Assembly (NCBI GenBank): GCA_965200765.1
Contig: OZ241380.1
Coordinates: 2,706,417 to 2,770,416, forward strand
Direction of reading: 5' to 3'
DNA: 64,000 bases
Source: Arenicellales bacterium
GTDB lineage: Bacteria; Pseudomonadota; Gammaproteobacteria; Arenicellales; JAJDZL01
Below, one piece after another: positions 3,001 through 32,043 of the stretch; within the stretch, counting starts at the first letter, position 1, and each line of letters starts with the position of its first letter. The translations under genes and the position numbers were made by a program. Below the pieces are notes generated by a model. That model saw only the letters and a program-made list of their open reading frames with translations, searched no databases and had not been told where the DNA came from.

Positions 3001-6000
3001 TGTGTCGCCCGCATTGAACGTCAGAGTACCCGACGACAGCGCTGTGTAGTCTGTTCCCGAAGCCGCGGTGCCACCAGCACCTTCAGCATAGTTCACTGTC
3101 ACCGTTCTGCCGCTCGCCGCACTCAGCGAAACAACAAACCGCAACCTTGCAGTGCTACTGTCCCCCTCCGCCACCGACGGCGAGCTTATCGACACCGTCG
3201 GCGCCGCATCGTCGTCCTCCAGCGTCAGCGAAGCACCGGTCACCGTACCAATGCCCTGAGTGTTCTGTGCCGTGGCTGTCACCGTCGCACTGCGATTCGG
3301 TTCGTCCTTCGCATTGTCCACTGCATTGATCGTCGCCGTGTCGCCGCTGTTCGTCGTGCTACCCGCCGCAATCGTAATGGTCTTGTCCGCTCCTACCGTG
3401 TAGGCACCCGCAACCGCCGTCACCATAATCGTCGTAGACTCACTCGACGCATGGCTCAGTGTCGCTGAAACCGTAGTTGTGCCGCCGTTCTCCGAAATTG
3501 AACTGTCCGCCAGCGTCAGCGTCACCGTCGGCGCCGCATCGTTGTCTTCGAGCGTCAGAGAAGCACCGGTCACCGCACCGATGCCCTGGCTATTCTGTGC
3601 CGTGGCTGTCACCGTCGCACTGCGATTCGGTTCGTCCTTCGCATTGTCCACTGCATTGATCGTCGCCGTATCGCCGCTGTTCGTCGTACTGCCCGCCGCA
3701 ATCAAGATAGTCTTGTCCGCTCCCACCGTGTAGGCAACTGAAACCGCCGTCACTGTAATCGTCGTGGACTCATTCGATGCATGACTCAATGTCGCCGTCA
3801 CCGTCGTCGTGCCGCCGTTCTCCGAAATCGAATTGTCCGCCAGCGTCAGCGTCACCGTCGGCGCATCATCGTCGTCCTCCAGCGTCAGTGAAGCACCGGT
3901 CACCGCACCGATGCCCTGGCTGTTCTGCGCCGTCGCCGTTACTGTCACACTGCGGTTCGCCTCGTCTCTGGTGTTGTCTACCGCGTTGATCGTCGCCGTG
4001 TCGCTGCTGTTCGACGTGCTGCCCGCCGCAATCGAGATGGTCTTGTCGGACCCCACCGTGTAGGCACCCGAAACCGCCGTCAACGTAATCGTCGTGGACT
4101 CACTCGACGCATGGCTCAAGGTCGCCGACACCGTCGTCGTGCCGCCGTTCTCTGAAATCGAATTGTCCGCCAGCGTCAGCGTCACCGTCGGCGCATCATC
4201 GTCGTCCGTTATCGTACCTGTGCCGGTAGCAGTACCCAATGTCGCGTTACCGGGACTGCTCAGTGCCACTTTCACTGTTTCATCGTCTTCGTCCAGCGTA
4301 TCGCCGGCTACTGAAACATCAATGTTCTTGCTCGTGTCCCCTGCATTGAACGTCAGAGAACCTGATGACAGCGCCGTGTAATCCGTTCCCGAGGTTGCGG
4401 TGCCGCCAGCATCTTCAGCATAGTTCACTGTCACCGTCCTGCCACTCGCCGCACTCAGCGAAACCACAAACCGCAATCTTGCTGTACTGCTGTCGCCCTC
4501 TGCTACCGACGGCGAGCTGATCGATACAGTCGGCGCCGCATCGTCGTCTTCCAGTGTCAGCGAAGGACCGGTTACCGAACCGATGCCTTGACTGTTCTGC
4601 GCCGTCGCCGTTACAGTCGCCACCCGGTCCGACTCGTCCTTCGTGTTGTCCACCGCGTTGATTGTCGCTGTATCGCTGTTGTTCGAGGTTTCGCCCGCCG
4701 CAATCGTAATGGTCGCATCGCCGCCCACTGTGTAGGCACCCGCAACTGCCGTCACTGTAATCGTCGTGTCCGCGCTTGACGCATGGCTCAAGGTCGCCGA
4801 CACCGTCGTCGTGCCGCTGTTTTCAGAAATCGAGCTGTCCGCCAGCGACAGCGTCACCGTCGGTGCATCATCGTCGTCCTCCAGCGTCAGCGAAGCACCG
4901 GTCACCGTGCCGATGCCCTGAGTGTTCTGCGCCGTAGCTGTCACTGTCGCCGTCCGGTCCGACTCGTCCTTCGTGTTGTCCACTGCAGCAATTGCCGCCG
5001 TATCCGTGCTGTTCGAAGTTTCGCCTGCCGCAATCGTAATGGTCGCATCGTCGCCCACTGTGTAGGCACCCGCAACCGCCGTCACCGTAATTGTCGTGGC
5101 CGCACTCGACGCATGGCTCAGCGTCGCAGTCACCGTCGTCGAACCCCCGTTCTCCGAAATCGAATTGTCCGCCAGCGACAGCGTCACCGTCGGCGCATCA
5201 TCGTCGTCCTCCAGCGTCAAGGAAGCACCGGTCACCGCACCGATGCCCTGACTGTTCTGCGCTGTAGCTGTCACCGTCGCACTGCGATTTGCCTCGTCCT
5301 TCGTGTTGTCCACTGCGGTAATCGCAACCGTGTCCGCGCTGTTCGAGGTTTCGCCTGCCGCAATCGAGATGGTCTTGTCCGCTCCCACCGTATAGGCACC
5401 TGAAACCGCCGTCACCGTAATCGTCGTGGTAGCGCTTGAAGCATGGCTCAGCGTCGCAGTCACCGTCGTCGTGCCGCCGTTCTCCGATATCGAGCTATCC
5501 ACCAGTGCCAGTGTCACCGTCGGCGCATCATCATTGTCTTCCAGCGTCAGCGATGCACCGGTTACAGCACCGATACCCTGGCTGTTCTGCGCCGTCGCCG
5601 TCACCGTCGCTGTCCGGTCCGACTCGTCCTTTGTGTTGTCCACTGCATTGATCGTCGCCGTATCGCTATTGTTCGAGGTTTCGCCCGCCGCAATCGTAAT
5701 GGTCGCATCGTCGCCCACTGTGTAGGCACCCGCAACCGCCGTCACCGTAATTGTCGTGGCCGCACTCGACGCATGGCTCAGCGTCGCAGTCACCGTCGTC
5801 GAACCCCCGTTCTCCGAAATCGAATTGTCCGCCAGCGTCAGCGTCACTGTCGGCGCATCATCGTCGTCCTCCAGCGTCAAGGAAGCACCGGTCACCGCAC
5901 CAATGCCCTGAGTGTTCTGTGCCGTAGCTGTCACCGTCGCACTGCGATTTGCCTCGTCCTTCGTGTTGTCCACTGCATTGATCGTCGCCGTATCGCTATT

Positions 6001-21486: not shown

Positions 21487-21816
21487 TCAAGCCTCAAATT
21501 CCGAAATTCGGATGGTACCGTCTACCATTTTCGACTTCCGTTCCACCACCTTCCGAATCTTTTTCCAGAACGATTGATTCAGGTCAAAATCAGCTGCGAT
21601 CGAAGTGCCCAAGAGCAATATCAGCAAGTCCGCACACTCCTCGGCGATCTGCTCCTTGCCCTTGCCTTTGGTCACGGCCGCTGAAATTTCACCCAGTTCC
21701 TCAACCATCAGTGCAATTCGATACTTCAGATCGTGACCACCCTTTCCCGCCATATCAAACCTCTCATGAAACGCTTGTACCGCATTTCGCATCTCTGTAA
21801 AAGAATCTTGATTCAT
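21487..21816 (-). CDS. Small MazG-like nucleotide pyrophosphohydrolase domain protein
   Basis: 109-aa all-helical protein with EELGE....(x).. and EE.AD.L motifs ([26 protein letters not shown]), typical of the MazG/NTP-PPase family. It has a 4-nt ATGA overlap with the glyQS stop. Confidence 0.65.
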
Positions 21817-24800
21817 TGCTTCACCTCACCCGGTTGCAACTGGGAAATGTCCGCTACCTTCAGAAACATATTGTTGATAAATGAAACCAGTGCCACCCGA
21901 TTCATCCGGAGTTCAATATTTTCGTCCATCACCATGACTTCGTCAAAAAACAGGTCAATCGGCTCTTTCAAGACCGCAAGCTCATGCAGTACACCTGAAT
22001 GGTCAGATTTGCCCAGCAACGGTTCAATTCGCTGATTGACTTCTTTCGCCTTTCGGTACAGAGACTGTTCCGATTTCTCGATCAGCAGTTCAGAGGTCAC
22101 TCCATCGCGAACCAGTACATCGGCAGAACGCAGAATATTCCTGATGCGCTTGTTTGCCACCACGAGATTTTCAAACTCTGGCAGATTCCTGAACTGACGA
22201 ACAGCCCTCAGTCGCATGTCGAACTCTAGCAACCGCGATAGCTTCAATTCGTACACCGATGCAAATTCGTCGGCGGTATATCCTTGATCTATGCAATACC
22301 CTCTGAGACGATCCAGCATGAATTCAAATACCTTTTGTATCGTAGCTTCGTCTGGCACTGCAACTCCGTTATTGTCATCGCCGGCACGCTGTTCTTGAAA
22401 CAATTCAACCGCTTTGATCATGACAAATTGAATATCAAGGTTCAGTTTGCGCTCAATCACAATTCTGAGTACTGCAATCGCCATGCGTCGCAGTGAGTAC
22501 GGGTCGCGGTCACCTTTAACAACTTCTCCCGCTGCCGTCAGTCCCACAAGAGAATCAATTCGATCTGCAATTGCGACACTGCAACCGGCCGGAGATTCAG
22601 GAAGCATGCCAGTCGCGGATCTCGGATAATAACTTTCCTCAATCGCCTGCGCCAGCGTAACCAATTCGCCGTTTGCCTCCGCATAGTATCGGCCCGCAGT
22701 ACCCTGCAACTCGGGAAATTCGCCTACCAGCTCGGTTACCAGGTCGGCCTTTGACAGCAACGCTGAACGATGTGCGACTGTTGCGTCATAACCCAATGTT
22801 TCAGCAATAAATTCAGCGAGTTGCGATATGCGTATGGACTTGTCATACACTGAACCAAGCTTGTTGTGAAACACCAGGGTTTTCAGGTGCGGCAACTTGT
22901 CTTCCAAAGAACTTTTCAGGTCCTGATGCCAGAAAAATTCAGCATCTGCAAGCCGGGCACGCAATACCCGCTCATTCCCGTGCCTGACTCTTTGCAAAAT
23001 TTCTTCATCATCCAGATTGATGTTCGCCACGCCAACAAACTTCGGCATCAAGTTGCCATCTGCATCCACCACCGAAAAGTACTTCTGATGATGCTCCATG
23101 GAAGTAACCAGAACCTCCTGGGGCAGTTTCAGAAACCGCTCGTCAAACGAACCCAAAAATGCAAACGGCCATTCAACCAGATTGGTAACCTGATTCAACA
23201 AGGTTTCCTTGACTACCACATTTCCGCCTGTTACAGACTCCAAGCTCTGAATTTGCTTCAATATTAATTCTTTTCGTCGCTGTGAGTCAGCAATGACCCG
23301 GCCATGCGCTTCCAATTGTTCTTCGTAGTCATCCGCACAGGGGAGGTTGATGTTTCCCGGATGGTGAAAACGGTGCCCGACTGTACTGGAGCCGGACCCA
23401 ACCGAAAAGACTTCGCAGGGTATTTCCTCATTCCCGTGAAGAAGAACCGCCCAGTGTACTGGTCGAACAAACTGAGCCTCGCTGTTGCCCCAGCGCATTC
23501 GCTTGGAAATCGGCAACCTCGCCACTGTGTTTTCAATACATTCCGGAATTGAATCAACCGCACTTCTGCCAGGGTCCGTATACCGGTACGCAAGATAACT
23601 TGCCTTGTCGGTTTCCACTCGTACCAATTCATCCACTTCCAACCCGCAGGATTTTGCAAACCCCGTGCTGGCAGCTGTCGGATTACCATCCGCGTCAAAT
23701 GCTCGGTTTAATGGCGGACCACGACGTTCCTTTTGTACTTCAGGGCTTCTGCGAAGCACCTCTGCAATCAATACGCCGATACGTCTGGGAGTGCCAAAAC
23801 TTTGGGACTGTTGCTCCATCGTTTCAATCAGTCCTGCACGATGCAGTTCCTCTTTCAACCCTTTCTCTAGTGCTACGGCAAGTGTTTCAACCGAGTCAGG
23901 CGGCAATTCTTCGGTGCCAATTTCAAGCAATAGCGAAGCCGGTTTTGACGATTGGGACTCTGTTGAAATATTACTGGACGCTGTAGCGCTTTCAACTGTT
24001 GATGTTTCCTGCCGACGCAACCCGGGAAATCCTTGAGTCTCCCGACTTTGGTAGTATGCTTCTGCAACCATTCTGGCAAGATTGCGCACCCGTCCAATGT
24101 ATCGTGCCCGCTCTGTCACACCGATCATTTTTCTCGCATCAAGCAAATTGAAGGTATGCGATGCTTGCAACACCTTCTCGTATGCTGGAAACGGCAGATC
24201 CTGATTCACCAGTTCTTTGCATTGAATCTCCAGAGAGTCGAATTTTTCAAACAAAAAATCCGTATCAGCGTATTCAAAATTAAAGGCTGATTGTTCTTTC
24301 TCGAACTGAAGGTAAAGATCGCCGTAGGTCCAGTTGTCATTCCACTTCAGGTCGAAAACGTTCTCGACTCCCTGTACATACATTGCAATCCGCTCCAGTC
24401 CATAAGTGATTTCTCCGGTTACCGGTCGACACTCCATGCCACCTGCCTGCTGAAAATAGGTTACCTGAGTTATCTCCATCCCGTTGAGCCAGACTTCCCA
24501 ACCCAGACCCCAAGCTCCCAATGTGGGTGATTCCCAGTCATCTTCAACGAATCGTATATCGTCTTGCAAGGGGTCAATATTCAATCGGCGCAATGAGTCC
24601 AGATAAATTTCCTGGAAATCAATGGGCGACGGTTTCAGTACCACCTGATATTGAAAATAGTGCTGCAAACGATTTGGATTTTCGCCATACCGGCCATCAG
24701 TTGGTCGTCTCGATGGTTGGACATAGGCTGACTTTGTCGGTTCGGGTCCAACTGCCGCGAGAAAGGTTGCCGGATGGAATGTACCAGCACCGACTTCCAT

Positions 24801-24878
24801 GTCATAAGGCTGTAGGATGACACACCCTTGCTCTGACCAGTAATCGTTTAACGCAAATATGATTTGTTGAAAGTTCAA
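21813..24878 (-). CDS. glyQS: Fused glycine--tRNA ligase alpha + beta subunits (GlyQ-GlyS single chain, 1021 aa)
   Basis: The N-terminus [36 protein letters not shown] is GlyQ. After a Ser/Thr-rich linker ([28 protein letters not shown]), [12 protein letters not shown] starts GlyS. One uninterrupted ORF with a TTG start at 24878. Confidence 0.9.
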
Positions 24879-25288
24879 GGCAATTCGCTTGTTTTCACAG
24901 ACAGTATTGTTTGATTGATGCGAGGACAGCGATTGAATGACAGGAGCTGACTCATGCTTGTCTATTGTACTCGCGCCGGGTGCTTCGTTTGAACTCGGTA
25001 ATGAATATCATGACCGGCTAGCAGGATACAGGAGCTAGTCTTGTAGTCGCTATGCTATTGACATTGTGCGTCGATTCGACTTTGAGTTATTGCTTTGCTC
25101 TCCGGTAAGCTACGATTGCCCACTTCAATTGGCCAGTTCGCCAAGTTTCTGCTCATCGCTCATCCAGCAAAGGCTTTCACTGGATATTTGCAATCCTACC
25201 CCAAGGAAATTGGTAAATTTGCCTTCAAATGATTTCCATCGGGGAGTACCAGATTCATTAAACCGTTTTCCAGAAATTCAATTCCATG

Positions 25289-27259
25289 CTAATCTTCCCC
25301 ATCCTCTTCAATGTTTTGCAGGAGTCGGGAAATTCGACCTTGTACGTATGTACTCTTGTCCAAAAATTCCTGATATGCATTGAAGGCGCTGTTTATCAGT
25401 TGGTCGTAAAGAACCACCCTTACTCCTTTAACATTCAACATTGACTCTGATTCTTGTCTTTCTTGGAAATTACTCCAGTCATTCAGCTCATTTCCCACAA
25501 CACAAACGACATCAATTTTAGGATTTTGCTCACCTTTCACCTCTGACAATAATTTCTTTAGAGCATTACGGTAAAGATTCACTTGCTTTAAGAGTGAAAA
25601 AGTATCTGTCCGTACACTTGCTCGTTTCAATTCTACAATGATGTGCTTCCCCGCTGTAGTTCTATATTTGATATCAACGCGACCTTGTAACTCTTCATCA
25701 GTCAACGAAGTTGAAATTTTCTCGAATTCCTTGATTAATCGCTGCTCCATATATTCAGAACCAGACACCTTTTCCCATGATGGATCCAACAACCATAAGT
25801 GATCAAACAAGTGTTTCTGAATTACACGCTCCTTTTCGTCGTCTTCAATCAGATTCCGCAACGCTCTGACAACACCAATACGACCCTTGACAATCTGATG
25901 AAACAGAGTTGCTTCCAATTCATCCAAATGTCCAAAAACCTTTCCGAACTCGACGATGGTATCACCAGTTAGATCCCGTAATGCATCAAGGTTCTGCTTT
26001 GCTTTCAAACACTCAAAGGCCAGTACACTGTATTGAAACAGCATCGCACGCTGTTCCGGCTTGTCTACCATGATTCGGTTGACCTTTCCAAAAATCTGTT
26101 CGGCCCGATGTTGGTCATCCTTGCCCAATGATTCGAACCACTCTTTAATCGCGTAACTTTCAAACGCGACTTCCTTTGCAACTTTGTTTCTCAGTGTTGT
26201 CCAATGGTTCTTGATGTAAGTGATTTCTGATTTGACAGCTTCACAAAGTGCAACATTTCGTTCATCGTCTTCAACCACAGACTGGCGATTCGTTGTTACA
26301 ATATCCGGATAGACATCGTCATCAAGGTCATCCGCACAAATCTCTCCAATAATGAATTTTGAGTAAAGGCCCGTTTCACCGAAGGGTTGAAGTATGTCTT
26401 CCTGAACAAGCTTGCCCCGGGCCATTACAACGATCTTGTTCCAGCTATCGCCTTCTGTCATTAGCTGACCAGACTCCTTGACAGTTCCTATCCATCCTTC
26501 AAATTTTGACTCTTCACGTTCCTCTATATGCTCCAAATTGCTGCACAACTCAATGCATTTTCGTCCGTACTCTCCATAGTACCAGACATATTGGAGATTT
26601 CGGTAATAGTCACGGTCTGTTACATCAATCGGTTCGTTGTTCAAATTTATCTCAAATTCATGGTCTGAACCCAGTATGCTAAACCGACGAGCCAATCGCC
26701 TCCGCAAAGCTTTCTCCGTCTGGTTTAGCCTTTTTCTTGGCTTGCGCAGAACAATACGGGTACCGCTTGGCATGGAATCCATTTCCGGTTCTATCTGGAG
26801 AGGATGGTAGGTACCCTTTGTGCGTCCTTCTCGAATCGCTTCCTGAATTTCCGGGAGGGACATGCTAAAGGCTATCGGCTCCTTACCCTCAAATCGCGAA
26901 TGAACATCAATAACATTTGCAACAGAAAACAGAGACAGCTTGCCAATTCCCTTTCGACCCATTACAGGGCGTTGAAACTTGGAAGTGACCGGATCTTCAT
27001 ACTCCCGACGCCTGTACCCAACTCTGAGGAATTTCTCATTGATATCTTCCACAGACATGCCATGGCCGTCATCACAAATCGAAATCGTTTCAGCATGCGA
27101 ATTGATTCTGATTGTTACAGAAGTGGCATCTGCATCCCATGAATTTGCAACCGCCTCGGCAAGTACCGCAGGCACGTTGCTGTAAAGATTGACCCCCAAA
27201 TGATTGAGCACATTCAAATCAATCGTCATTTTGAAAATTTTCTTGACTTCAGCATCCAT
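25289..27259 (-). CDS. GHKL (MORC/MutL/Hsp90-like) ATPase fused to a C-terminal PD-(D/E)xK-type nuclease motif, copy A (656 aa)
   Basis: Bergerat-fold motifs are E35-AVA-N39-SW-D42, DDGHGM and GRKGIGKLS. The C-terminus reads HLFDHLWLLDPSWEKV ... GRVD529IKYRTTAGKHIIVE543LK545R; I checked the DNA at 25625-25690. Confidence 0.75.
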   Translation of the reverse strand: MDAEVKKIFKMTIDLNVLNHLGVNLYSNVPAVLAEAVANSWDADATSVTIRINSHAETISICDDGHGMSVEDINEKFLRVGYRRREYEDPVTSKFQRPVMGRKGIGKLSLFSVANVIDVHSRFEGKEPIAFSMSLPEIQEAIREGRTKGTYHPLQIEPEMDSMPSGTRIVLRKPRKRLNQTEKALRRRLARRFSILGSDHEFEINLNNEPIDVTDRDYYRNLQYVWYYGEYGRKCIELCSNLEHIEEREESKFEGWIGTVKESGQLMTEGDSWNKIVVMARGKLVQEDILQPFGETGLYSKFIIGEICADDLDDDVYPDIVTTNRQSVVEDDERNVALCEAVKSEITYIKNHWTTLRNKVAKEVAFESYAIKEWFESLGKDDQHRAEQIFGKVNRIMVDKPEQRAMLFQYSVLAFECLKAKQNLDALRDLTGDTIVEFGKVFGHLDELEATLFHQIVKGRIGVVRALRNLIEDDEKERVIQKHLFDHLWLLDPSWEKVSGSEYMEQRLIKEFEKISTSLTDEELQGRVDIKYRTTAGKHIIVELKRASVRTDTFSLLKQVNLYRNALKKLLSEVKGEQNPKIDVVCVVGNELNDWSNFQERQESESMLNVKGVRVVLYDQLINSAFNAYQEFLDKSTYVQGRISRLLQNIEEDGED

Positions 27260-27337
27260 AGCTTTTCAAATTTTTGCTTACACTTTTTGCAATTGCTCGT
27301 GCCAGTGCGACTGGCACTGCATTGCCTATCCATCGGG
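27249..27337 (-). pseudogene. Relic of the last ~28 codons of the C5-methyltransferase gene, left by the tandem duplication
   Basis: 27249-27337 matches 29342-29430 with one mismatch seen (gccagtGcgactggc vs gccagtTcgactggc). It translates RWIGNAVPVALARAIAKSVSKNLKSYGC*. Homology to the methylase ends at tccatcggg (27329-27337). Confidence 0.85.
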
Positions 27338-27381
27338 AAGTGCCAGATTTAATGAACCTTTTCCAGAAATTCAATTCCATG

Positions 27382-29352
27382 CTAATCTTCCACATCCTCT
27401 TCAATTTTTTGTAGTAGTCGGGAAATTCGTCCTTCTACGTATGTACTCTTTTCCAAAAATTCCTGGTATGCTTTGTAGGCATTGTTTATCAGTTGGTCGT
27501 AAAGGACAACTCTAGCACCATCAATCCTCAGTATCTCTTCGGATCTCTGTCTTCCATTATGGTCTTCCCAATCCTTAAGATCGCGACCCACAACACATAT
27601 AATTTCGATTATGGACTCTTGGTCGTTTTCAGTTGCGGACAATATTTTCTTTAGAGTATTTCGATAAATTTCAATTTGCCTCAATAGCGTAAGGGTATCT
27701 GTCCGAACACTTGCTCGTTTCAATTCTACAATGACATGCTTACCTGCAGTAGTTCTATATTTAATGTCAACGCGGCCTCGTAACTCTTCATCAGTCAACG
27801 AATTTGAAATATTCTCGAATTCCTTGGCTAATCGCTGCTCCATGTATTCAGAACCAGACACCTTTTCCCATGATGGATCCAACAACCATAAATGATCAAA
27901 CAAGTGTTCCTGAATCACACGTTCTTTCTCATTTTCGTCAACCAAATCCTGTAATGCTCTAACAACACCAATACGACCCTTGACAATCTGATGATACAGA
28001 GTTGCTTCCAAATCATCCAAATGTCCAAAAACCTTTCCGAACTCAACAATGGTATCACCAGTTAGATCCCGTAATGCATCAAGGTTCTGCTTTGCTTTCA
28101 AACTCTCAAAGGCTAGTGCACTGAATTGAAACAGTATCGCACGCTGTTCTGGATTGTCTACCATGATTCGATTGACTTTTCCAAAAATCTGTTCGGCCCG
28201 GCGCTGGTCATCCTTGCCCAATGATTCGAACCACTCTTTAATCGCGTTACTTTTAAACGCTACTTCCTTTGCAACTTCGATTCTCAGTTTTGTCCAATGT
28301 TTCTTTATGTAGGTTATTTCTGATTTGACAGCCTCACAAAGTGCAACATTTCGCTCATCGTCTTCAACCACAGACTGACGATTCGTTGTTACAATATCCG
28401 GATGGGCATCTTCATCAAGATTATCCGCACAGATCTCTCCAATAATGAATTTTGAGTATAGGCCCGTTTCACCGAAGGGTTGAAGTATGTCTTCCTGAAC
28501 AAGCTTGCCTCGGGCCATTACCACGATCTTGTTCCAACTGTCGCCTTCTGTCATTAGCTGACCAGACTCCTTGACAGTTCCTATCCATCCTTCAAAATTT
28601 GACTCTTCACGTTCCTCTTTATGCTCCAAATTGCTACACAACTCAACGCATTTTCGTCCGTATTCTCCATAGTACCAGACATATTGGAGATTTCGGTAAT
28701 AGTCACGATCTGCTATATCAATTGGTTCGTTGTTCAAATTTATATGAAAATTGTAGTCTGAACCCAGTATGCTAAACCGACGAGCCAATCGCCTCCGCAA
28801 AGCTTTCGGTGTCTGGTTTAACCTTTTTCTTGGCTTGCGCAGAACAATACGGGTACCGCTTGGCATGGAATCCATTTCTGGTTCTATCTGGGGAGGGTGA
28901 TAGGTGTCTTGTGTGCGTCCTTCTCGAATCGCTTCCTGAATTTCCGTGAGCGACATGCTAAAGGCTATCGGCTCCTGATCTTTAATTCGCGAATGAACAT
29001 CAATAACATTTGCAACAGAAAACAAAGACAGCTTGCCAATTCCCTTTCGACCCATTACAGGACGTTGGAACTTGGAAGTGACTGGATTTTCATACTCCCG
29101 ACGCCGGTACCCAACTCTGAGGAATTTCTCATTGATATCTTCCACAGACATGCCATGGCCGTCATCACAAATCGAAATCGTTTCAGCATGCGAATTTATT
29201 CTGATTGTTACAGAAGTGGCATCTGCATCCCATGAATTTGCAACCGCCTCGGCAAGTACCGCAGGCACGTTGCTGTAAAGATTGACCCCCAAATGATTGA
29301 GCACATTCAAATCAATCGTCATTTTGAAAATTTTCTTGACTTCAGCATCCAT
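27382..29352 (-). CDS. GHKL ATPase - PD-(D/E)xK-type nuclease fusion, copy B (656 aa)
   Basis: Paralog of copy A offset by exactly 2093 bp. The first 122 aa differ at a single residue (D89N). The same GHKL and VDIKY...VELKR motifs are present. Its start overlaps the methyltransferase stop by 11 nt (ATGGATGCTGA). Confidence 0.75.
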   Translation of the reverse strand: MDAEVKKIFKMTIDLNVLNHLGVNLYSNVPAVLAEAVANSWDADATSVTIRINSHAETISICDDGHGMSVEDINEKFLRVGYRRREYENPVTSKFQRPVMGRKGIGKLSLFSVANVIDVHSRIKDQEPIAFSMSLTEIQEAIREGRTQDTYHPPQIEPEMDSMPSGTRIVLRKPRKRLNQTPKALRRRLARRFSILGSDYNFHINLNNEPIDIADRDYYRNLQYVWYYGEYGRKCVELCSNLEHKEEREESNFEGWIGTVKESGQLMTEGDSWNKIVVMARGKLVQEDILQPFGETGLYSKFIIGEICADNLDEDAHPDIVTTNRQSVVEDDERNVALCEAVKSEITYIKKHWTKLRIEVAKEVAFKSNAIKEWFESLGKDDQRRAEQIFGKVNRIMVDNPEQRAILFQFSALAFESLKAKQNLDALRDLTGDTIVEFGKVFGHLDDLEATLYHQIVKGRIGVVRALQDLVDENEKERVIQEHLFDHLWLLDPSWEKVSGSEYMEQRLAKEFENISNSLTDEELRGRVDIKYRTTAGKHVIVELKRASVRTDTLTLLRQIEIYRNTLKKILSATENDQESIIEIICVVGRDLKDWEDHNGRQRSEEILRIDGARVVLYDQLINNAYKAYQEFLEKSTYVEGRISRLLQKIEEDVED

Positions 29353-30469
29353 AGCTTTTCAAATTTTTGCTTACACTTTTTGCAATTGCTCGTGCCAGTT
29401 CGACTGGCACTGCATTGCCTATCCATCGGGCAACTGTAGAGGTATTCGGTTGTTCGCCACTCTTTGAAAACTGGTAATTACGTGGGAATGTCTGCAATAA
29501 TGCCGCTTCCCGCAAAGATATTGCTCTGTCTTGTTCGGGATGCCCGAACCTGCCGTTTCCAAATCCGTAGCATTGAGTTGTAATCGTTGGGCCAAGTTCG
29601 TTCCACATCATACGTCCGTAAACACTACTGTAAGATTCCCCTGTCTTCTTTTTGTGGCAATTTGCAACCAGGAACTGGTCCCAATCTCGCCACGAACCCC
29701 CTGGTTTGGAGGCTCGAATTCTCGCCAGATTAATTTCTGTTAGCCGGCTTGAACGGTGCAAAGCATCTTCTGCATCGCATTCCCCGGCCGAAATAGGAGG
29801 TAATGTAGAGATTGCATCTTTGACAGTGATGTAGTTTTCGGGTTCATGCGTGGGCGGCACAAGTTCAATTTTTCCCAACTTTGAAGCGAGCAATACAAGA
29901 CGCTTTCGAAGCTGAGGGACTCCGTAGTCCGCACACTTTATGATGTTCCACCAAACAAAATAGCCATCATCTTTCAATTTCTGTTCAAACTCCTGAAACA
30001 AATGGCCACCTTTATAACTGACCAGTCTCGGGACATTTTCCATAGATACAATATCGGGCTGCGATTCACGAATGATTTGACTAAAGTCTCGTAGTAGCCG
30101 CCACTTGCCTTGTTTTCCACCGTTGGTATAAGTCGAAAAAGGTTGACATGGTGCACAACCAACCAGAATTTTCGGTTCATCCCGGTGAAAATATTCATTC
30201 AAATCCACACCTTGAATGTCCTGAATATCCCGCTTCAGAAATTCTGCATTATTATTGTTCCTTTCATAAGCATAGCTGCACGTAGCATCCGTATCAATTC
30301 CGGCTGCAACCGTAAAACCCTCCAGCAGGAATCCATGGCTCAAGCCACCAATTCCACAAAACAAATCAACAACTCTTCCGGGCCTGTTGTTCGTGTGTGC
30401 TTTCAGTGAGCGCCCATGGCATCGGTCTGCTCTCTTTGCAGGCTTGCAAATGACTTCGTGCTGTTCCAT
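29342..30469 (-). CDS. DNA (cytosine-5)-methyltransferase
   Basis: All hallmark motifs are present: DLFCGIGGLSHGF (I), GCAPCQPFS (IV, catalytic Cys), SMENVPRL (VI), QLRKRLVLLAS (VIII) and GNAVPV (X). Confidence 0.9.
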   Translation of the reverse strand: MEQHEVICKPAKRADRCHGRSLKAHTNNRPGRVVDLFCGIGGLSHGFLLEGFTVAAGIDTDATCSYAYERNNNNAEFLKRDIQDIQGVDLNEYFHRDEPKILVGCAPCQPFSTYTNGGKQGKWRLLRDFSQIIRESQPDIVSMENVPRLVSYKGGHLFQEFEQKLKDDGYFVWWNIIKCADYGVPQLRKRLVLLASKLGKIELVPPTHEPENYITVKDAISTLPPISAGECDAEDALHRSSRLTEINLARIRASKPGGSWRDWDQFLVANCHKKKTGESYSSVYGRMMWNELGPTITTQCYGFGNGRFGHPEQDRAISLREAALLQTFPRNYQFSKSGEQPNTSTVARWIGNAVPVELARAIAKSVSKNLKSYGC

Positions 30470-30781
30470 ATCGAACTGGTGCTTGAATATTATTCTGTAT
30501 TGATTCCACCCCTATAGTATCAAAGCAGGATGAATATGAATAGGTCAGATTCGAAAATCGAACATCGTGTGAAATTGAATCTGCTTGTCAATTGTAATTC
30601 TTTTTCGAATACAGCGACCACTGGAGTATGTTTCGGGGAACACTCATATTTCCTCGGAACCTTTTCAGCTTCGCAAACTGACACGCGAAATTAATTCTAC
30701 GCCAATCCGGCAAAATTGTGTACAATGGAATGTTTGCGTCTGTAAGACTCATTCCCCTTTTCACACTGATATTCGAAGAAA

Positions 30782-31825
30782 ATGAACACCAAGCGTAAAG
30801 CTGTTGCATTAATCTCCGGCGGATTGGATTCCATGCTGGCCGCGCAGGTTATGCTTGAACAGGACATACATGTCGAGGGTATCAATTTCTTCACCGGATT
30901 TTGTGTTGAAGGGCATACCCATGCAATCCGCAACAAAAACCGAAACAAGGCAAAGCGCAACAACGCTTTGTGGACCGCTGAGCAATTGGGCATAAAACTG
31001 CACATTATTGACGTGATCGAACCGTACAAGGATGTTGTATTGAATCCGAAGCACGGCTATGGTGCAAATCTGAATCCTTGCCTGGACTGCAAATCGTTCA
31101 TGGTCGGTCGCGCTCGAAACTGGATGGAAGAACAACAGTTCGACTTCATTGTTACCGGTGAAGTGCTCGGCCAGCGCCCAATGTCGCAACGACGCGACAC
31201 CTTTCCGGTGGTTGCTACTGAATCCGGTGCCGACGATCTGTTGCTACGCCCTTTGTGTGCAAAATTGCTACCCGAAACACTGCCGGAACGACAAGGCTGG
31301 GTAAATCGCGACGCACTGCATGCGTTTTCCGGTCGTAGCCGCAAGCCCCAGATGGAGCTGGCCAAAAAATTTGGCTTTACAGACTATGCGCAACCTGCCG
31401 GCGGTTGTTGTTTCCTTACCGACGAAGCATATGCACGCAAATTGCAGGATCTGTGGGATCATCGCGGTAGCAAGACCTATGAATTCGATGACATCATGCT
31501 ACTCAAGGTGGGGCGACACTTGCGGCCCAAACCAGACTGGAAACTGATTGTCGCACGCGATGCAGGCGAGACGCGGTTCATGAGCGGCTACAAGAATCAA
31601 TTCCCGCATGTCATCATAACCAGTCATTCAGGTCCATTGACTTTGATTGACGGGGAAATACCGGACGACGATATTGAACTGGCCGCCAGTTTGGCCGCCA
31701 GATTTGGCAGTTCTCGGAATGCCGACAGAGTGGAAATGAGATTCTCAAGAGGCAATGGCGACCAACGCACCTTGTATGTGTCACCAATGAAGCCCGAAGA
31801 GGTAAAAGAACATTGGTACGTGTAG
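30782..31825 (+). CDS. PP-loop ATP pyrophosphatase, ThiI/MnmA-like putative tRNA sulfurtransferase
   Basis: Contains the SGGLDS PP-loop at the N-terminus (AVALISGGLDSMLAA) and conserved Cys motifs NPCLDCK and PAGGCCFLTD. It is followed by, and overlaps, a TusA-like gene. Confidence 0.6.
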   Translation: MNTKRKAVALISGGLDSMLAAQVMLEQDIHVEGINFFTGFCVEGHTHAIRNKNRNKAKRNNALWTAEQLGIKLHIIDVIEPYKDVVLNPKHGYGANLNPCLDCKSFMVGRARNWMEEQQFDFIVTGEVLGQRPMSQRRDTFPVVATESGADDLLLRPLCAKLLPETLPERQGWVNRDALHAFSGRSRKPQMELAKKFGFTDYAQPAGGCCFLTDEAYARKLQDLWDHRGSKTYEFDDIMLLKVGRHLRPKPDWKLIVARDAGETRFMSGYKNQFPHVIITSHSGPLTLIDGEIPDDDIELAASLAARFGSSRNADRVEMRFSRGNGDQRTLYVSPMKPEEVKEHWYV

Positions 31826-32043
31826 ACTGCAAACTGGATGCACGGCAGTTGCTTTGCCCCATGCCTGTCATACGCACGCAGGAAAAAGTATCAGCGTTGC
31901 AACGCGGAAATGTGCTGGAAGTACGGTGCACAGACCCCGGTGCGCTGGTTGACATACCAGCATGGTGTCGTGTGCATGGTCATCGGGTACTTCAGACCGA
32001 GGAATGCGATAATGAATACATCGTTCAATTGCGAGTTTGCTGA
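31813..32043 (+). CDS. TusA/SirA-family sulfur carrier protein
   Basis: 76 aa with LDARQLLCPMPVIRTQEKV (the CPxP active-site motif). TTG start overlaps the upstream PP-loop gene by 13 nt. Confidence 0.75.
   Translation: MVRVDCKLDARQLLCPMPVIRTQEKVSALQRGNVLEVRCTDPGALVDIPAWCRVHGHRVLQTEECDNEYIVQLRVC

Follow-up and report, generated by a model that had tools for sequence, protein, structure and literature searches.

The window analysed here is a stretch of 64,000 nucleotides (nt) from an Arenicellales bacterium (assembly GCA_965200765.1, contig OZ241380.1, positions 2,706,417 to 2,770,416 of the forward strand), and its subject is an operon of three open reading frames (ORFs) on the minus strand. 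A gene for a C5 cytosine DNA methyltransferase (methylase) is followed by two genes, copy A and copy B, for paralogous proteins that each join a GHKL ATPase to a putative nuclease domain. Together they probably constitute a Type II restriction-modification (R-M) operon of the HgiDII/BbrUII family in which the nuclease gene was duplicated in place. The features of the operon, in the direction of transcription, are as follows (aa, amino acids).

30470..30700, minus strand: upstream non-coding region, presumed promoter and 5' untranslated region, which moves together with the module.
29342..30469, minus strand: C5 cytosine DNA methyltransferase, 375 aa, of the M.HgiDII/M.BbrUII type by operon context.
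29422..29430, minus strand: CCCGATGGA, the left copy of a 9-nt microhomology, in the 3' end of the methylase gene and at the start of repeated unit A, as placed by in-register comparison, junction alignment and BLAST breakpoints against a single-copy locus, L003.
27382..29352, minus strand: nuclease paralog A, 656 aa, with a GHKL ATPase, an S5/Hsp90-middle-like domain, a helical linker and a putative Shedu-like PD-(D/E)xK domain (NF050001, 759 bits).
27249..27381, minus strand: spacer between A and B, consisting by junction alignment of 44 nt of nuclease-downstream sequence, the junction CCCGATGGA (27329..27337) and an 89-nt remnant of the methylase 3' end (RWIGNAVPVALARAIAKSVSKNLKSYGC followed by a stop).
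25289..27259, minus strand: nuclease paralog B, 656 aa, with the architecture of paralog A; the resident B-type allele (NF050001, 760 bits).
25421..25579, minus strand: segment in which copy B diverges very strongly from copy A (gene nt 1680-1840, aa ~561-612); it corresponds to 27514..27672 in copy A.
25235..25243, minus strand: CCCGATGGA, the microhomology as it recurs in the right flank, 45 nt past the stop of copy B, where the duplicated region ends (BLAST end-points at 25235).

The methylase is recognised by PF00145 (9e-64), TIGR00675 (143 bits) and the PADLOC model MTase_II (3.7e-92), and its motifs I, IV, VI, VIII and X (FCGIGG, PCQ, ENV, QLRKR and GNAVP) are complete. The end of its gene and the start of copy A share 11 nt (ATGGATGCTGA, 29342..29352). 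Both the full motif set and the overlap had been described in an earlier reading of the window made from its letters without database searches (hereafter the sequence-only reading), and both stand. REBASE lists HgiDII and BbrUII as isoschizomers of SalI, and the HgiDII activity came originally from standard Type II assays. According to the account in PMC5867850, which cites Dusterhoft and Kroger (1991), M.HgiDII is an experimentally characterised m5C methylase with the site GTCGAC. Two secondary sources are at odds over the base modified by M.BbrUII, and the comparison of specificity is therefore made with HgiDII alone. Avoidance of GTCGAC in the window was considered as a clue to specificity and dropped, as 12 sites against 17 +/- 4.6 expected give no signal.

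Copies A and B are 86% identical and align without gaps. Both match NF050001, the NCBIfam equivalog 'BbrUII/HgiDII family restriction enzyme' with a curated cutoff of 550 bits, at 759.3 bits (copy A) and 759.8 bits (copy B), with residues 9-650 aligned to profile positions 1-659 of 659; the PADLOC model REase_II matches them at 8.6e-89. Because the full-length score of 760 bits lies well beyond the cutoff, the profile places the system in a named family, that of HgiDII and BbrUII, and the description 'uncharacterised' in the sequence-only reading has to be withdrawn. Relatives on RefSeq plasmids, among them those at L084 2911-5989, at 26-45% identity, are labelled just 'ATP-binding protein', even when overlapped by a DNA cytosine methyltransferase gene (Halobaculum, Haloplanus), so that the nuclease family is under-annotated in older records.

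Pfam reports the GHKL domain PF13589 in the paralogs (1e-18) and otherwise only a sub-threshold SduA_C. All of the ATPase and nuclease motifs quoted in the sequence-only reading were found: E35/N39/D42, D63DGHGM68, G101RKGIGKLS, HLFDHLWLLDPSW, D529 and E543-L-K545. Among 35 aligned homologues, the most distant at 49% identity, E35, N39, D42, D63xGxG67 and G101RKGIG106 are invariant in the GHKL domain, and D492, E496, D529, E543, K545 and Q559 in the nuclease domain. The full-length AlphaFold2 model (predicted local distance difference test, pLDDT, 78) was compared with known structures by Foldseek, which returned the N-terminal and middle domains of Hsp90/TRAP1 (E ~1e-11, ~390-440 columns); an N-domain of the MutL/MORC/Hsp90 kind had been anticipated from the letters. 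Because the model aligns with these two domains, the first ~330 residues are predicted to comprise a GHKL domain and an S5-like transducer. Thus both elements of an Hsp90/MutL-type GHKL-S5 module, the Bergerat motifs (ExxxN, DxGxG, GxxGxG) and the transducer, are found. A long helical region follows in the model at roughly aa 333-520. A sequence search of the Protein Data Bank (PDB) with the whole protein gave marginal GHKL matches only.

The C-terminal 189 residues were modelled alone (pLDDT 84.6, predicted template modelling score, pTM, 0.78). The best PDB fold match of this model is the Shedu nuclease domain 8ti9_C (probability 0.97, E = 4e-3, TM = 0.40), and the next are XisH proteins, Nt.BspD6I, the Avs4 nuclease, EcoT38I, Cap4 and Hachiman, all of which are of the PD-(D/E)xK type. 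When members of the C-terminal alignment were scanned with Pfam, SduA_C was matched in 18 of 23 (best 2.5e-5, all sub-threshold), PDDEXK_4 in 7 of 23 and YhcG_C in 4 of 23. In the paralogs themselves the SduA_C (PF14082) match, at aa 475-548, stays below the gathering score of 27 bits, with 18.7 and 16.3 bits for the full-length proteins and 22.9 bits for the isolated domain. The PADLOC Shedu models do not match the paralogs, and a PDB sequence search with the C-terminal profile found nothing meaningful, hence no solved sequence-level relative of the nuclease domain. The order of the motifs, E496...D529...E543xK545...Q559, is that of Shedu motifs I-IV. According to the fold matches and the Pfam scan, the C-terminal domain is apparently a PD-(D/E)xK nuclease of a Shedu-like kind; the scores are all sub-threshold but consistent with one another, and the result agrees with the domain reading made from the letters, including its hint at Shedu/DUF4263. 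As in Type II R-M systems, methylase and endonuclease are encoded by separate genes and the endonuclease carries a recognised nuclease motif. In the single-copy B-type nuclease of L003 (6001-7971, P0005) an aspartate replaces E543 of the ExK motif (IIVDLKR); the exchange is conservative within (D/E)xK and is the sole departure seen in that column.

Proteins of this layout have been met before under several names. R.HgiDII was described in 2008 as a GHKL protein with a C-terminal domain unassigned to any fold (PMC2441816). Iyer, Abhiman and Aravind (2008) defined paraMORC3 proteins, in which GHKL and S5 domains are followed by a C-terminal restriction endonuclease (RE) fold with an E-D-ExK motif, some of them encoded by standalone genes (PMC2292703). 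The sequence-only reading had cited that paper for the predicted linkage of GHKL/MORC-type ATPases to methylases and nucleases; the paper already describes the GHKL-S5-RE-fold fusions as well. Gu et al. classified proteins composed of GHKL, Hsp90-middle-like and DUF4263 domains as Shedu type 1D, and counted 602 Shedu genes within R-M loci. In VcSduA, which has the same architecture, Adams et al. (2025) found anti-phage activity that requires both the ATPase (E27A) and the nuclease (K557A) (PMC12137116). The claim that no single-chain GHKL-nuclease effector had been characterised is thus contradicted by these genetic tests. The Shedu protein of B. cereus is auto-inhibited and non-toxic.

When one genome per species was scanned, relatives of the nuclease turned up at no fewer than 555 loci, in many bacterial phyla and in archaea, and gene neighbourhoods were counted at the best 80 of these reference loci. 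An orthologue of the C5 methylase (39-62% identity) ends within 250 nt upstream on the same strand in 63 of the 80; two more lie at a contig edge and are not assessable, and a further two have the methylase elsewhere in the locus. Linkage of methylase and nuclease is a property of the family, as an R-M system predicts. The R-M-type unit suspected from the letters alone, for which such a neighbourhood survey had been suggested, is thereby upheld.

A different arrangement was seen in a metagenome-assembled genome (MAG) labelled 'uncultured Cenarchaeum sp.' (OY282369.1; loci L048, L049, L050, L053, L058 and L067), which holds at least eight intact nuclease paralogs, mutually 70-96% identical. Three of its copies lie within 10 kb at L049, where a single C5 methylase precedes the first of them and a DDE transposase is interposed, and most copies in this MAG have no methylase within 6 kb.

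Units A and B of the window align in register when shifted by 2093 nt. The repeated unit takes in the final 89 nt of the methylase gene, the whole nuclease ORF and a further 44 nt beyond it, its breakpoints being supplied by the single-copy orthologous locus L003, and the methylase-tail remnant restores the native ATGGATGCTGA context ahead of copy B. An identical A/B junction is present in L085, L086, L092 and L094. The same module occurs at another chromosomal slot (L001 and L093, described below), where homology to the window stops at 27355; the tail past copy A continues ~10-18 nt beyond this point, and the extra stretch matches the local right flank, which argues for duplication in situ and not for a second insertion. 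The gene coordinates of the sequence-only reading hold, except that its left end, 25229, falls ~60 nt past the stop of copy B, near the end of the duplicated unit at 25235. Between the two copies lies an ORF of 43 codons (MELNFWKRFIKSGTSRWIGNAVPVALARAIAKSVSKNLKSYGC, 27379..27249, minus strand) that begins 2 nt past the stop of copy A and terminates on the ATGGATGCTGA of copy B. Through it, translational coupling could extend to copy B. As a conserved feature this relay was rejected: the ORF is intact in L085, L086 and L094, but in L092 a 1-nt deletion ends it ~25 nt early.

Four genotypes were seen at the slot that the operon occupies, between a PP-loop/TusA gene pair and glyQS (M, methylase; A and B, nuclease types).

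M-A-B: the window, L085/L087, L086 (cut by the contig end), L092/L096 and L094.
M-B: L003/L095 and L091.
B alone: L002/L097 and L099.
A-like alone: L088, L089 and L090.

The M-A-B array is thus present in at least five contigs of diverged strains, the window included, with A first every time. A methylase with an A-type nuclease also occupies a second slot, flanked by an ABC transporter gene and rplM, in L001 and in L093, a closed genome of 3.15 Mb. There the module (L001 4887-9924; L093 5001-10038; ABC transporter ... rplM/rpsI; ~92% nt identity to the window) is homologous to the window from 30700 to 27355, and it is directly followed by a second R-M pair, an N6_N4 methylase with a DpnII-like partner, so that a small R-M island results.

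Across strains the nuclease genes split into an A lineage and a B lineage. Copy A is 92-94% identical in nt to the copies in L092, L094 and L093, and copy B 98% identical to its orthologue at the single-copy locus L003. The A and B copies of one genome share ~90% identity, and orthologues from different genomes ~93%. The 'tandem duplicate' of the sequence-only reading is therefore real, but the term understates a pair that is old, maintained across strains and mosaic rather than a recent copy. For orthologues between array-bearing strains the ratio of nonsynonymous to synonymous substitution rates (dN/dS) is 0.22 for A and 0.18 for B (the L092 B orthologue) at a dS of ~0.2. Because these strains already carried the array, both copies have been under purifying selection since it formed.

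The divergence between A and B is unevenly distributed. Over the first 200 nt the two copies are 99-99.5% identical within each of three genomes, compared with 96-97% between genomes; the ATPase head and the methylase tail thus evolve in concert, through gene conversion. At the other end, over nt 1680-1840, A and B share only 58.8% identity in each genome, and dS is ~1.9. This segment occurs as two allelic classes, A-type and B-type, each common to several strains. In the nuclease-domain model it forms a helix, a strand and a helix after the ExK motif, and the invariant residues C586, G589, D594 and W595 are retained in both types. By these comparisons the ~160-nt segment is an ancient alternative allele that recombination brought in, and not the product of divergence in place.

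In two of the genotypes the methylase has been lost. L002 and L099, from two samples, share a deletion that begins ~30 nt ahead of the methylase ATG and stops ~12 nt short of the nuclease ATG, and L088-L090, from three samples, share a different one that spares the initial ~15 codons of the methylase and its final few (coordinates: L002 5658-6000, equal to L097; L099 1397-1500; L088/L089/L090 ~5658-6000). Both types leave a 656-codon nuclease ORF intact, with all catalytic residues, directly behind the operon upstream region. This region, 30470..30700, is kept in both deletion lineages immediately ahead of the nuclease, and homology to the module at the other slot (L001, L093) begins at window position 30700. 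A scan for the sigma-70 consensus found nothing above chance, and promoter and terminator scans of 24700..30900 gave counts at or below shuffle expectation.

The operon is flanked by a fused glyQS gene and by a PP-loop/NFACT-R_2 gene, beyond which lie TusA and glnA, and its guanine-plus-cytosine content is 0.41-0.45 across the three R-M genes vs 0.47-0.51 in the flanks. Both the AT-richer stretch and the core genes around it had been noticed from the letters. In glyQS (21813-24878, minus strand) glyQ and glyS form one ORF of 1021 aa, with a TTG start as listed; relatives are of 995, 1021, 1045 and 1049 aa, and so either the called start or the N-terminus itself differs among strains. On the other side (30782-32043 for the two genes, plus strand) a gene for a 347-aa PP-loop ATPase with a C-terminal NFACT-R_2 RNA-binding domain, called as 330 aa in several relatives, overlaps a 76-aa TusA-family gene by 13 nt. 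The pair looks like a sulfur-relay or tRNA-thiolation pair. On the contig of a methylase-less strain, a few kb beyond glyQS, a gene with a recorded product of 11,186 residues runs past the end of the locus (L097 1-573).

These observations are probably explained by a Type II R-M operon of the HgiDII/BbrUII family, with a single-chain nuclease that was duplicated in situ and both copies of which are likely to function under one methylase. The operon would have been acquired horizontally into the slot between the PP-loop/TusA pair and glyQS. Its methylase would place m5C on a short palindrome, GTCGAC if the specificity of HgiDII is conserved. The nuclease would dimerise through ATP-bound GHKL heads, as a clamp, by analogy to MutL, Hsp90, MORC and the VcSduA model, and binding and hydrolysis of ATP would license a dimer of the C-terminal PD-(D/E)xK domains to cut unmethylated sites. 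Such ATP-coupled dimerisation is suggested because the residues are conserved and because VcSduA has its E27A phenotype. The 2093-bp unit of methylase tail, nuclease gene and 44 nt was duplicated in situ by illegitimate recombination at the 9-nt microhomology. Gene conversion holds the first ~200 nt and the methylase tail near-identical within each genome, and the ~160-nt segment of the nuclease domain derives, through recombination, from a deeply divergent allele. Judged from sequence conservation, both paralogs are probably functional and served by the single methylase. Two homodimers are conceivable, as is an A/B heterodimer, and the heterodimer is favoured because the N-terminal 120 residues are identical.

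Several points weigh against this reading. The Shedu and PD-(D/E)xK signals of the nuclease domain fall below formal thresholds (Foldseek E = 4e-3; Pfam 22.9 vs 27 bits; none among PDB sequences). The count of GTCGAC sites, 12 vs 17 +/- 4.6 expected, comes from a length of DNA too short to inform on specificity, and the searchable literature yielded no biochemical study of ATP use by enzymes of the HgiDII family. At 13 of the 80 reference loci there is no methylase within 6 kb. Finally, two independent natural deletions, in five samples, have removed the methylase and left the nuclease intact; this counts against the reading because a constitutively active Type II nuclease without its methylase should be lethal. 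Two accounts of these strains were considered. It is plausible that they are protected by a second methylase of the same specificity elsewhere in the genome, since the module occurs at a second slot, and this account is ranked above a Shedu-like gating of the nuclease because the methylase is strongly conserved and overlapped across the family. Gating is ranked second.

The gating account can be extended to the system as a whole. The protein would then be no classical Type II enzyme but a Shedu-like immune nuclease, kept inactive by its GHKL/transducer module until infection is sensed, for instance through a DNA structure, free ends or a phage protein; the methylase would be an accessory safeguard or a modifier of specificity, and its loss would be tolerated. 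The closest structural and Pfam relatives of the nuclease domain are indeed Shedu proteins; VcSduA, of the same architecture, works without a methylase and needs its ATPase, and the B. cereus protein sets a precedent for auto-inhibition without toxicity. The at least two independent methylase deletions, the 13 reference loci without a nearby methylase, the Cenarchaeum MAG, in which at least eight intact copies were seen with one methylase, and the standalone paraMORC3 proteins noted by Iyer et al. (PMC2292703) all point in the same direction. However, the family is named after two catalogued sequence-specific Type II restriction enzymes and the paralogs score well above its equivalog cutoff, while the PADLOC Shedu models do not match them. 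Moreover, in ~80% of loci a closely conserved methylase runs into the start of the nuclease gene, which is the signature of an obligatory protective partner, and the existence of the second slot in L001 and L093 means that methylase-less strains may carry another copy of the module. On balance this explanation is considered unlikely.

The second copy might instead be a redundant by-product of rearrangement that is drifting to loss, its low dN/dS reflecting selection on the alleles before they recombined. The single-copy M-B strains (L003, L091) show that one copy suffices, and the middles of the genes are mosaics of A and B types, so that part of the divergence was imported and not accumulated in place. 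Yet both ORFs are intact and exactly 656 codons long in every array seen, in five contigs from strains separated by a dS of ~0.2, the dN/dS values of 0.22 (A) and 0.18 (B) come from orthologue comparisons that post-date the array, and all catalytic residues are kept. In addition, 290 nt of near-identity make tandem repeats easy to delete, and their persistence therefore argues for selection, which leaves drift a very poor explanation. That the tandem pair is an artefact of assembly, in which the haplotypes of two strains were strung together, is scarcely credible: the related contigs do come from long-read metagenome assemblies of mixed strains, and single-copy, double-copy and methylase-less versions do occur together in one sample, but the copies join at a specific microhomology of 9 nt, beside a diverged methylase-tail remnant and without homologous overlap, and this junction recurs with lineage-specific substitutions and one indel in the window genome, a contig of 3.29 Mb, and in four contigs that differ in their methylase alleles.

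For the R-M operon favoured here, the R-M system itself is ordinary, and current models in annotation pipelines will recognise its named family; what is new is the apparent assignment of a Shedu-like C-terminal domain, the maintained pair of diverged tandem nucleases and the methylase deletions. A Shedu-like nuclease in place of the formerly unassigned domain would link textbook restriction enzymes to a recently characterised defence family, and a GHKL-S5 ATPase in a 'Type II' enzyme raises the question of the role of ATP. The four genotypes at one slot (M-A-B, M-B, B alone and A-like alone) amount to a natural test of the toxicity of the nuclease without methylase, and concerted evolution at one end of the gene combined with an ancient allelic segment at the other is an unusual pattern for a restriction enzyme. 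A bolder and rather improbable generalisation is that HgiDII-family enzymes are Shedu-type ATP-gated nucleases that do not depend on the absence of methylation alone, and that the A/B pair is adaptive. If so, the repeated loss of the methylase beside an intact, selected nuclease would be explained, and the pair would represent an obligate or facultative heterodimer or a hedge of two variants against phage anti-restriction proteins directed at the ~50-residue segment by binding it.

Among known systems, the MutL, MORC and Hsp90 proteins share with the paralogs the invariant Bergerat motifs I-III, and weak sequence matches to MutL and HtpG were found. The likeness is at superfamily level only, with 13-16% identity, and the C-terminal half of the paralogs consists of a helical linker and a putative PD-(D/E)xK nuclease, in contrast to the dimerisation domain of MutL and Hsp90. 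The resemblance to Shedu type 1D and VcSduA (formerly paraMORC3) extends to the three-part architecture and the E-D-ExK-Q order of the nuclease motifs, and the Shedu nuclease is both the best fold match and the most frequent Pfam match of the C-terminal domain. The paralogs nevertheless stay below the SduA_C gathering threshold and match no PADLOC Shedu model; furthermore, Shedu is a single gene without a dedicated methylase, whereas the nuclease in the window has a conserved and overlapping one. HgiDII and BbrUII share with the present operon a C5 methylase that lies immediately upstream in the same direction, and R.HgiDII shares the layout of the paralogs, an N-terminal GHKL domain with a further domain at the C-terminus. 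The difference is that one nuclease stands behind the methylase in those systems, and two diverged paralogs stand behind it here.

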